Assembly: GCF_044324785.1 (NCBI RefSeq)
Contig: NZ_CP172127.1
Origin: Escherichia coli
GTDB lineage: Bacteria > Pseudomonadota > Gammaproteobacteria > Enterobacterales > Enterobacteriaceae
Reading direction: 5' to 3' (one strand)
Length of the DNA: 64,000 nt
The translations under genes and the position numbers were made by a program. The notes beneath the pieces are model-generated. The model made no database searches and was not told the origin of the DNA. It saw nothing but the letters and a program-made list of their open reading frames with translations. Position 1 is the first letter of the stretch; every line of letters starts with the position of its first letter. Positions 32,736 to 41,540 of the stretch are shown piece by piece.

Positions 32736-33364
32736 GCTTCGCGCGAAGTGAGGGCCAGCGTTTTGCTCTCACGAGGTTGCAGATCTTTCTGCAGGGCAAT
32801 AGCCAGCGCCGGTTGGGCGATAAATCGTTTCCATAACCGCTCTTGCTTACGCAGACAACACCACTTCGACCAGGTCGCCAGTGGAATCAATGTGCTTTCA
32901 CCAATGTTGTCGCAGACGACTGGGATAACCTCTGACTCACTGATGCGGTGACAGAGGATATTCTGCGGCTTCAGCGACATCGTCACGATACGGTTATCCT
33001 GCAAATAACGCTTCAGCTGTTTCAGTAACTGGCGCAGTTGTGCAATGTCTTCTTCGTAACGGCATTGTTCTGCAAATTCGGTCAGCGTAATGGAAGGCTT
33101 GCCGTCGAAATCGGCAATCACATCGTAGACATAACCGGTTCCGCAATCCGTCTCAACGGTACCGTGATAGCGCGGTATTCCACTCCAGTCTTTTAACCGG
33201 CGACCAAGATGCGCGTAGTACTTTAACTCACGGCGGATCTCTTTATCGCCACCATCGCCACGATGGTAGACAATCTTGATACAGCGTTGGGCATCTTCCG
33301 GATGCGCATAACATTTCCGATGTCTTCCGGTGCCCAGGGGACTTTGTTCAGATAAGCGAATCAT
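32732..33364 (-). CDS. yrbL: PhoP-regulated uncharacterised protein YrbL
   Basis: 210-aa [27 protein letters not shown]...; PhoP-box-like direct repeat upstream; convergent 4-nt overlap with mtgA. Confidence 0.88.
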
Positions 33365-33414
33365 GCCATCTCCTGGAAATATTTTCTGACGATCTCCAGT
33401 ATGGTCGATTAACT

Positions 33415-33431
33415 TAAACGAAACCTAAACA
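33415..33431 (-). promoter_or_regulatory. putative PhoP box in yrbL promoter
   Basis: Minus-strand TGTTTA-ggttt-CGTTTA: two hexamers spaced 5 nt, 51-67 nt upstream of the yrbL ATG. Confidence 0.6.
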
Positions 33432-33576
33432 ATGCTTCTTAAGGTTTTCTTAAGGTTCTTCTGAAAGTAAAAAGCGCACGAAATGTACAATTGACGTTGA
33501 TTGAGAACGATTTCAGTACGCGCTTTTCTTATTGCCGGGGGAGCTTGAAGGGATTTGAATGTCAAAGTGATGAAGA

Positions 33577-33849
33577 TTAATCTTCATCAAAACCAGAATT
33601 AAAGAGGGCGATAACGGCGGCCAGTGCTTCCTCTTCCTGTGGACCGGTGGCTTCAACTTCAATCTGCCGTCCTTTGGCAGAATCCAGCATCAGCAGTGCA
33701 ATAACGCTGTTGGCTTCAGCCTCGGTGCCTTCGTCATTACGTAACAGCACTTCAGCGTCAAAACCCTGCATTAATTCAAACAGCTTCATTGCAGGCCGGG
33801 CATGCATGCCCAGCTTGTTTGTGATTTCAACAGTTTGCTTGACGGTCAT
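33577..33849 (-). CDS. ptsO: nitrogen-PTS phosphocarrier protein NPr
   Basis: 90-aa HPr-like [23 protein letters not shown]. Confidence 0.94.
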
Positions 33850-40562: not shown

Positions 40563-41540
40563 TTATTCAACGAGTATTGGCGATAACCAGTACAACATCG
40601 CCAGCCATACGATAAATCCGCCAGTTAATAATACCCCTACACCACGGCCCGGTTGCGGGGAGCGCCGCCAGCACAGCAACGCAAAAATAATGCTCACCAG
40701 CAACATCACGCTGTAGTCACGACTGTACGCCAGTGGATCAATCTCTCCTGGCGTTATCAGCGCGGGTAAACCCAACACGATGACAATATTAAAAATGTTT
40801 GCGCCAATGATATTTCCGACAGCAATGTCGTTTTCACCTTTGCGAACCCCCGCTATTGCGGTTGCCAGTTCCGGCAGGCTGGTTCCGATAGCAATTGCCG
40901 TCAAACCCATCGTCAACTCGCTGATGGCAAAGTAATTCGCCAGCACCGTGGCGTTATCAACCACCATCCGCGTGGCCACTGGCATGATGATAAGCGCAAT
41001 GCCGAGCCATAAAAACGCGACGGGCAATCCGCCGTCACGCGGCAGCTCTGCAAGCTGCTCTCTGGTCAGGCTGTCAGTCCCCTGACGTTCAGCCTGACGT
41101 GCAAGTTTAACAATGAACAGCAGCCATAGCACAGCCAGAAAGAGGAGAAAGATACCATCGCTGCGACTAAGTTGTCCGTCATAGAGTACGGAACCGGCCA
41201 CCACGCTGACCAACAACATTAAGGGTAATTCACGGCGCAGAACATCGGAATGGACGGTAAAAGGACGAACCAGCGCAGCCAGACCGAGGATCAGCAATAT
41301 ATTGATAATGTTTGAGCCGAGGGCTGTACCAACGGCTAAATCGCGTTGTTCGTGCAGAGACGCGGCAAGCGAGACGATGATTTCTGGTAACGATGTACCA
41401 ATACTGACCACCGTCATGCCGATGATCAGCGGCGGGATGCCAAAGGTTCGGCAAAGAATAGACGCGGCAAAAACCAGGCGGTCGGCACTGTAAACGACCA
41501 AAAGTAAACCAACAATTAACAGTGCCGTAGCTAAAAGCAT
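40563..41540 (-). CDS. yrbG: CaCA-family cation/Ca2+ exchanger-like membrane protein YrbG
   Basis: 325-aa polytopic membrane ORF with duplicated alpha-repeat motifs (GTSLPE). Confidence 0.92.
   Translation of the reverse strand: MLLATALLIVGLLLVVYSADRLVFAASILCRTFGIPPLIIGMTVVSIGTSLPEIIVSLAASLHEQRDLAVGTALGSNIINILLILGLAALVRPFTVHSDVLRRELPLMLLVSVVAGSVLYDGQLSRSDGIFLLFLAVLWLLFIVKLARQAERQGTDSLTREQLAELPRDGGLPVAFLWLGIALIIMPVATRMVVDNATVLANYFAISELTMGLTAIAIGTSLPELATAIAGVRKGENDIAVGNIIGANIFNIVIVLGLPALITPGEIDPLAYSRDYSVMLLVSIIFALLCWRRSPQPGRGVGVLLTGGFIVWLAMLYWLSPILVE

Follow-up and report, generated by a model that had tools for sequence, protein, structure and literature searches.

The 17-bp direct repeat TGTTTA-GGTTT-CGTTTA in front of yrbL is, with high confidence, the PhoP box of this gene's promoter, which by published work on its orthologues is activated by PhoP and which has, at an adjacent site, a reported repressing input from PmrA/BasR. 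The repeat lies in a 64-kb stretch of Escherichia coli DNA, here called the window, and it was first proposed from a reading of the raw sequence. The yrbL PhoP box is already documented, and there is nothing new in the site itself. The case serves as a positive control for the scan, since a genuine transcription-factor site was recognised from the letters alone, with the right strand, spacing and mechanism. The additions made here are modest and consist of the frequencies by which two alleles of the PhoP box occur in E. coli, and of a further deeply conserved element in the same promoter.

The PhoP box and the promoter it serves

Read on the yrbL strand, the box has a distal half-site TGTTTA (33431-33426), a spacer GGTTT (33425-33421) and a proximal half-site CGTTTA (33420-33415), repeated in direct orientation relative to yrbL and placed 51 nt 5' of the yrbL ATG. 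The original prediction of a TGTTTA-N5-CGTTTA pair at 33415-33431 was exact in coordinates, strand and spacing. Its claim of a match to the PhoP box holds for the two hexamers and their separation by 5 nt, but in the second hexamer the C falls outside the strict (T/G)GTTTA consensus, which means that the strict form KGTTTA-N5-KGTTTA is matched with one mismatch, in position 1 of that hexamer. The box is followed by a gap of 11 nt (33414-33404) and then by CATACT, and it covers the position where a -35 hexamer would be expected. That it is placed to take over the role of a -35 element, as had also been proposed, agrees with the Salmonella yrbL promoter, where the same 11 nt precede CATACT. The prediction was right about the PhoP box but overlooked the PmrA/BasR-type repeat next to it. 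All features are collected in Table 1.

Table 1. Features of the yrbL promoter region and its flanking genes, in window coordinates.
Feature	Position	Strand	Basis or placement
PhoP box TGTTTA-GGTTT-CGTTTA	33415..33431	-	Direct reading, matrix score, conservation, orthology
-10 hexamer CATACT	33398..33403	-	Direct reading; same as in Salmonella yrbL; invariant in 18/18 promoters
Putative 5' leader, about 31 nt	33365..33395	-	Homology to the Salmonella S1 map
PmrA/BasR-type box CTTAAG-GTTTT-CTTAAG, perfect direct repeat	33438..33454	+	6 nt 5' of the PhoP box
Invariant block TTGTACATTTnGTGCnCTTT	33471..33490	-	87-68 nt 5' of the -10 hexamer, beyond the PmrA-type repeat
Haplotype-specific long imperfect hairpin and U-run past npr	33469..33528	-	RNA folding
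yrbL coding sequence, 210 aa	32732..33364	-	NCBIfam NF007671, E = 5e-120; RefSeq annotation of identical loci
npr (ptsO), last gene of the rpoN operon, upstream of yrbL	33577..33849	-	NCBIfam NF008146, E = 9e-57

The box in the window corresponds in sequence, strand, spacing and -10 position to the yrbL PhoP box of related bacteria, for which experimental data have been published. In Salmonella, the yrbL box TCGTTTAGGTTTTGTTTAA has been footprinted with DNase in direct orientation, 11 nt from the -10 hexamer CATACT (Zwir 2012, PMC3335776). The Salmonella gene has one start mapped by S1, which depends on PhoP and on low Mg2+, and its promoter has been assigned to architecture I, the Class II type, with the box overlapping the predicted -35 (PMC3335776). 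Its gap of 11 nt is the sole 11 among architecture I promoters with 12 nt (PMC3335776). In Shigella flexneri 301, the box tTGTTTAggtttTGTTTAa is carried by a fragment that is shifted by phosphorylated PhoP (PhoP-P) in EMSA (Lin et al. 2018, PMC5775216), and deletion of phoPQ reduces the yrbL mRNA to 0.02 times its level, a 50-fold drop, with beta-galactosidase assays reported as well (PMC5775216). For E. coli itself, the yrbL PhoP box is credited to Minagawa et al. 2003 and Zwir et al. 2005 by later papers that cite them. The predicted dependence of yrbL expression on PhoPQ and low Mg2+ is supported, by analogy, by these data on the orthologous promoters of Salmonella and Shigella.

To express the quality of the site as a number, a log-odds matrix was constructed from the 25 DNase-footprinted Salmonella activation boxes that Zwir et al. 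2012 list in their Table 1 (Mol Microbiol 84:463, PMC3335776), with yrbL excluded. The window box scores 20.7 bits, and the maximum for the training boxes (n = 25) is 18.6 bits. Among approximately 128,000 positions in the window it ranks first, 4.8 bits above the next. The core pattern GTTTA-N6-GTTTA occurs once in the 64-kb window, where 0.04 occurrences are expected. The matches that follow in rank are found at 41504-41522 (-), with 15.9 bits, and at 20927-20945 (+), with 15.7 bits. Both were rejected as PhoP promoters, the former lying within the first codons of a 325-aa open reading frame (40563-41540) and the latter on the wrong strand between two open reading frames of the - strand, and for both the simplest explanation is chance.

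The region upstream of yrbL was aligned with that of other E. coli, E. whittamii, E. albertii, cryptic Escherichia, four Citrobacter and S. arizonae, and also with that of a metagenomic enterobacterium (YrbL identity 81%), Siccibacter, Superficieibacter, Pluralibacter, Cedecea, an Erwinia sp. and an E. hormaechei copy. When 18 promoters from at least seven genera are aligned without gaps and anchored on CATACT, the cores TT.A and TTTA are invariant, and so is CATACT. The cores, the -10 hexamer and the 11-nt gap are all kept in Escherichia, Citrobacter, Salmonella, Siccibacter, Superficieibacter and the Erwinia sp. Even where the YrbL identity is down to 64%, a box of 15-22 bits stands at the exact distance of 11 nt from CATACT, and among the syntenic genera compared such boxes are present in all except Pluralibacter and Cedecea. 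In the hexamers, position 1 varies freely between T, C and G, and position 2 is G or A.

A scan of 33250-33700 with the sigma-70 consensus gave no -35/-10 pair, as would be expected of a promoter that depends on an activator. The hexamer found at 18-bp spacing is TAGGTT, listed with four mismatches in Table 2 of Zwir 2012 (PMC3335776). In Salmonella, the +1 lies 2 nt past the -10 and the leader has 32 nt (PMC3335776); this +1 is unusually near the assigned -10, which leaves some uncertainty either in the assignment of the -10 or in the exact start. By analogy, transcription of yrbL in the window would start at about 33395, a few nt past CATACT. The short leader that would result, GTCAGAAAATATTTCCAGGAG, shows strong conservation. 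A GATC stands at the putative start (33394-33391), and the leader further includes the conserved GTCAGAAAATATTTCC and a Dcm site, CCAGG (33376-33372), which overlaps the Shine-Dalgarno sequence AGGAG (33374-33370). In one study, yrbL was among the five genes most significantly up-regulated by deletion of dcm (PMC11741368). In E. coli strain 720632 (NZ_CP025842.1, locus L004), the sequence diverges right past CATAC of the yrbL -10, at about locus positions 1704-1734, and a transposase gene of the IS66 family is annotated about 30 nt beyond the point of divergence; in this strain the yrbL promoter has been disrupted naturally.

The mechanism that these elements suggest follows the literature on the orthologues. 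Low Mg2+, antimicrobial peptides or acid pH would be sensed by PhoQ, which leads to phosphorylation of PhoP, and a dimer of PhoP-P would bind the two half-sites head to tail. The box covers the -35 position and stands roughly one turn of the helix from the -10, and from there PhoP is predicted to substitute for recognition of a -35 element, in the manner of a Class II-type activator. This prediction is made because the box overlaps the -35; Class II action of PhoP has been shown in vitro for mgtA only (Zwir 2012, PMC3335776). The outcome would be a single PhoP-dependent start a few nt past CATACT and a leader of about 31 nt. PmrA, when activated either through PhoP and PmrD, which is the Salmonella route, or by Fe3+ through BasS, would in turn damp yrbL expression. 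Activation by PhoP together with repression by PmrA would make a 'bi-fan' at yrbL, as at pmrD.

The gene that is served by this promoter matches, over its full length, the equivalog NF007671, 'PhoP regulatory network protein YrbL'. The order of genes at the locus is rpoN-hpf-ptsN-rapZ-npr, followed by yrbL on the - strand, the convergent mtgA, and then elbB and arcB. Proteins of the YrbL family (PF10707) with approximately 50% identity also occur outside the npr-yrbL-mtgA context, on two contigs from gut or other metagenomes (L050 and L051), and upstream of such non-syntenic paralogues no PhoP box was found. There the genes lie directly past a gene for the alpha subunit of DNA polymerase III (dnaE-type Pfam domains) and adjoin LPS-related genes (Kdo-family kinase, glycosyltransferase), and in L050 two of them stand side by side and convergent. 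The LPS-gene neighbours may hint at an envelope or LPS-related role for this family of kinase-like proteins. A contig of 420 bp deposited under 'Tannerella forsythia ATCC 43037' (NZ_JUET01000135.1, L017) encodes the first 129 residues of YrbL with 99% identity to E. coli, and is almost certainly E. coli contamination of that assembly. In other work, the 'consensus elemental pause' carried by yrbL serves as the model sequence for studies, both single-molecule and structural, of how RNA polymerase pauses (PMC11260103), and an E. coli mutant that had been selected to resist the TAT-RasGAP peptide acquired the substitution V149L in yrbL (PMC9241736).

Elements upstream of the PhoP box

The PmrA/BasR-type repeat is unique in the window, where 0.11 occurrences are expected when one mismatch is allowed. 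The PmrA box has been published in the form CTTAAG-N5-xTTAAT (PMC3973317), which the repeat fits, with xTTAA(T/G) taken as the second half-site, in its direct half-sites and their 5-bp separation, and the repeat is kept across genera. In the Erwinia sp. (L047) and in Cedecea (L049), its direction is reversed relative to yrbL. According to Zwir 2005, as cited in PMC3335776 and PMC2681069, the E. coli yrbL promoter is bound and repressed by PmrA, and the distance given there between the PmrA box and the PhoP box, about 24 bp, fits the coordinates in the window. In E. coli B adapted to iron, yrbL is among the most down-regulated genes and basR, eptA and arn are up-regulated, a transcriptome pattern consistent with repression of yrbL by PmrA. 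Judged from its sequence, the CTTAAG-N5-CTTAAG repeat is the PmrA/BasR site of the reported repression, and as such it is known biology.

Further upstream lies a 20-bp block, TTGTACATTTnGTGCnCTTT, which is invariant in 13 of 13 sequences from Escherichia, Citrobacter and Salmonella, with divergence in both flanks. In 16 of the 18 promoters its distance to the PmrA-type repeat, the PhoP box and the -10 hexamer is constant. The block is kept in this register in Escherichia, Citrobacter, Salmonella and Superficieibacter, and a reduced core (TACATTTTGTGCG or TGTAC-N5-GTGC) is found in Siccibacter, Pluralibacter and the E. hormaechei copy. There is one copy of the block per E. coli genome, and the rest of the 64-kb window holds no other copy at up to three mismatches. 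That the block should be a dispersed motif was rejected on its single copy per genome and on the 17 metagenome matches outside yrbL being at chance level. An Rfam search of 33300-33700 returned nothing near any gathering score, and when the literature was searched for the letters of the block, all matches were irrelevant, either eukaryotic or to primers. Compared by eye with the RstA box, the OmpR half-site, the MlrA half-site, the marbox, sigma-54 sites and the extended -10, the block presumably fits each of them in part only.

The iron regulator Fur enters the picture since yrbL has been reported as a member of the direct Fur regulon in MG1655 and in CFT073, with a ChIP-seq peak, and as 5.7-fold de-repressed in a fur deletion. 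The centre of the CFT073 peak, at 3,781,815, corresponds to about 33493 in the window (position 316 of locus L018), which is 3 nt 5' of the block. When the spacer between npr and yrbL is compared with the canonical 19-bp Fur box (GATAATGATAATCATTATC), the best match is 10-11 of 19 in every species, with a median of 11 for shuffled sequences, and this best match falls elsewhere than the block. The block is most likely a conserved site that acts at the level of DNA, for a non-canonical or unidentified binder. That it constitutes a third cis-regulatory input to yrbL, either for a regulator with an asymmetric site or as a non-canonical Fur-dependent site, is a tentative suggestion with the balance of probability somewhat against it. 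If it were true, the yrbL promoter would integrate three signals: Mg2+, Fe3+ through PmrA, and iron through Fur or something else.

The block also takes part in an RNA structure, of which it forms the 3' arm in the window haplotype. The hairpin past npr has here a folding energy of -18 to -22 kcal/mol, with z about -2. In the K-12 allele, base changes in both arms leave a weak fold of -9.2 kcal/mol, with z = +0.2. From the folding, hairpin and U-run together are likely the terminator of npr and the rpoN operon in the window allele, and termination past npr, and hence read-through into yrbL, may differ between lineages of E. coli. Among the genera compared, a structure of the intrinsic-terminator type at the block is confined to the window haplotype and is not conserved. 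In several genera the block lies downstream of clean npr terminators, separate structures placed 5' of it in C. amalonaticus, locus L019, Siccibacter and Pluralibacter. A general role for the block as an arm of the npr terminator was rejected on the weak hairpin of K-12 and on these separate terminators upstream.

Allelic variation and alternative readings

The first base of the proximal half-site, at 33420, is polymorphic in E. coli. Its alleles were counted in 5,426 complete E. coli genomes with queries of 42 nt, for which a 28-mer seed was forced across the variable base. The TGTTTA allele of K-12 was found in 3,352 of the 5,426 genomes (approximately 62%), and the CGTTTA allele of the window in 2,041 (approximately 38%), including O157:H7 and CFT073. 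An exact match to the query occurs in 847 of the genomes with C, O157:H7 included, and approximately 1,200 have one further mismatch within the 42 nt, which in the two alleles read, R2 and CFT073, is a change of the spacer from GGTTT to GATTT. The C allele belongs to an intergenic haplotype of its own, in which further changes are linked to it and which over 261 nt is only about 95% identical to K-12.

Whether the C matters for PhoP can be judged from other boxes. It occurs in the proximal half-site of footprinted activation boxes, as CGTTTA in virK and as CGTTGA in ompX and pagD (PMC3335776), and the (C/T/G)GTTTA subclass of Zwir 2012 (PMC3335776) takes in C at position 1. At Shigella yoaE, a TGTTTA-N5-CGTTTA pair has been DNase-footprinted by PhoP-P (PMC5775216). 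Because C is found in footprinted boxes, and because the yoaE pair is identical to that of the window, we infer that the PhoP box still works with the CGTTTA variant and that any loss of affinity is modest. The opposite reading is that the change is functionally significant, so that in the 38% or so of E. coli that carry it, O157:H7 and B2 strains like CFT073 among them, the PhoP response of yrbL is measurably weaker or differently tuned than in K-12. The C does lie outside the strict consensus and lowers the matrix score by 1.2 bits, and it comes with a haplotype in which other bases have changed as well, and in about 1,200 genomes with one more mismatch in the query. Yet the score with C still exceeds that of every footprinted box in the training set, functional boxes have C in the same place, the same pair of half-sites is footprinted at yoaE, and between genera position 1 of the hexamers is free to vary in a way that the (G/A)TTTA cores are not. 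A functional effect of the C is on these grounds unlikely. Another alternative is that the repeat is a chance product of AT-rich DNA that regulates nothing, or that it is bound by a different member of the OmpR family, a family in which half-sites can look alike. However, not one of 300 first-order Markov simulations of the window reached the matrix score of the box, their maximum being 18.8 bits; the cores, the spacing and the -10 are maintained across genera; PhoP footprints or shifts the orthologous sites, and expression from them is PhoP-dependent; and the half-site of the separate PmrA-type repeat, CTTAAG, is very different. A chance or non-PhoP reading has next to no probability left and is effectively refuted.

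One may also ask if the box, being genuine, is of secondary importance, with yrbL driven mainly by read-through from npr or from a start near the invariant block, where TACATT (33487-33482) could serve as -10. This hexamer has the key -10 positions A2 and T6 and is invariant, and the Fur-dependent expression of yrbL and its reported ChIP-seq peak are compatible with a start in this region. The K-12 allele, with its weak terminator-like hairpin past npr, would be open to read-through, and in one recent study, where PyrbL was used as a PhoP-responsive reporter in E. coli, optogenetic titration of PhoP found yrbL to be the least PhoP-sensitive among the reporters tracked in single cells (PMC13215669), from which follows that other inputs matter. 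In Salmonella, however, the one mapped start is dependent on PhoP, and in Shigella the phoPQ mutant loses yrbL expression 50-fold. Neither a conserved -35 nor an activator site is seen 5' of the block, where the promoter scan was also without match, and in the window haplotype the hairpin and U-run past npr are fairly stable. Main control of yrbL from upstream of the PhoP box is therefore very improbable, and activation by PhoP at the 17-bp repeat remains the preferred reading. The polymorphism of this PhoP box is of practical concern when PyrbL reporters derived from K-12 are used to read out PhoP activity in other E. coli.

Comparison with known PhoP-controlled promoters

The yrbL promoter of Salmonella enterica is alike in gene orthology and synteny, in its single direct box with a GGTTT spacer 11 nt from CATACT, in the lack of a usable -35 and in the short leader. 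Its PmrA-type repeat lies about 24 bp 5' of the PhoP box, as in the window. The two differ in that Salmonella has its C in the distal half-site (CGTTTA-GGTTT-TGTTTA), whereas the C of the window is in the proximal one, and in that their leaders differ by 1 nt in length and also in sequence. In S. arizonae the proximal half-site is TATTTA, in place of the CGTTTA of the window. K-12 and Shigella flexneri share locus and architecture and differ from the window in two bases between the PmrA-type repeat and the ATG. Their box TGTTTA-GGTTT-TGTTTA is the full consensus, whereas the window, with CGTTTA as its proximal half-site, has the minority allele.

With the promoters of mgtA and phoP, yrbL shares the single direct (T/G)GTTTA-N5-(T/G)GTTTA box that lies over the -35, about one helical turn from the -10. 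From box to -10 there are 12 nt in mgtA and phoP and 11 nt in yrbL, and from box to +1 there are 33 nt in the former and 27 nt in the latter. Unlike yrbL, these two promoters have no reported PmrA site next to the box. The pmrD promoter is similar to that of yrbL in this last respect, since it combines an architecture I PhoP box with an upstream PmrA box that gives negative feedback. The distance between PmrA box and PhoP box is, however, approximately 38 bp in pmrD and approximately 24 bp in yrbL (PMC2681069), and the PhoP boxes of the two promoters belong to different submotifs, S2 in pmrD against S1 in yrbL.
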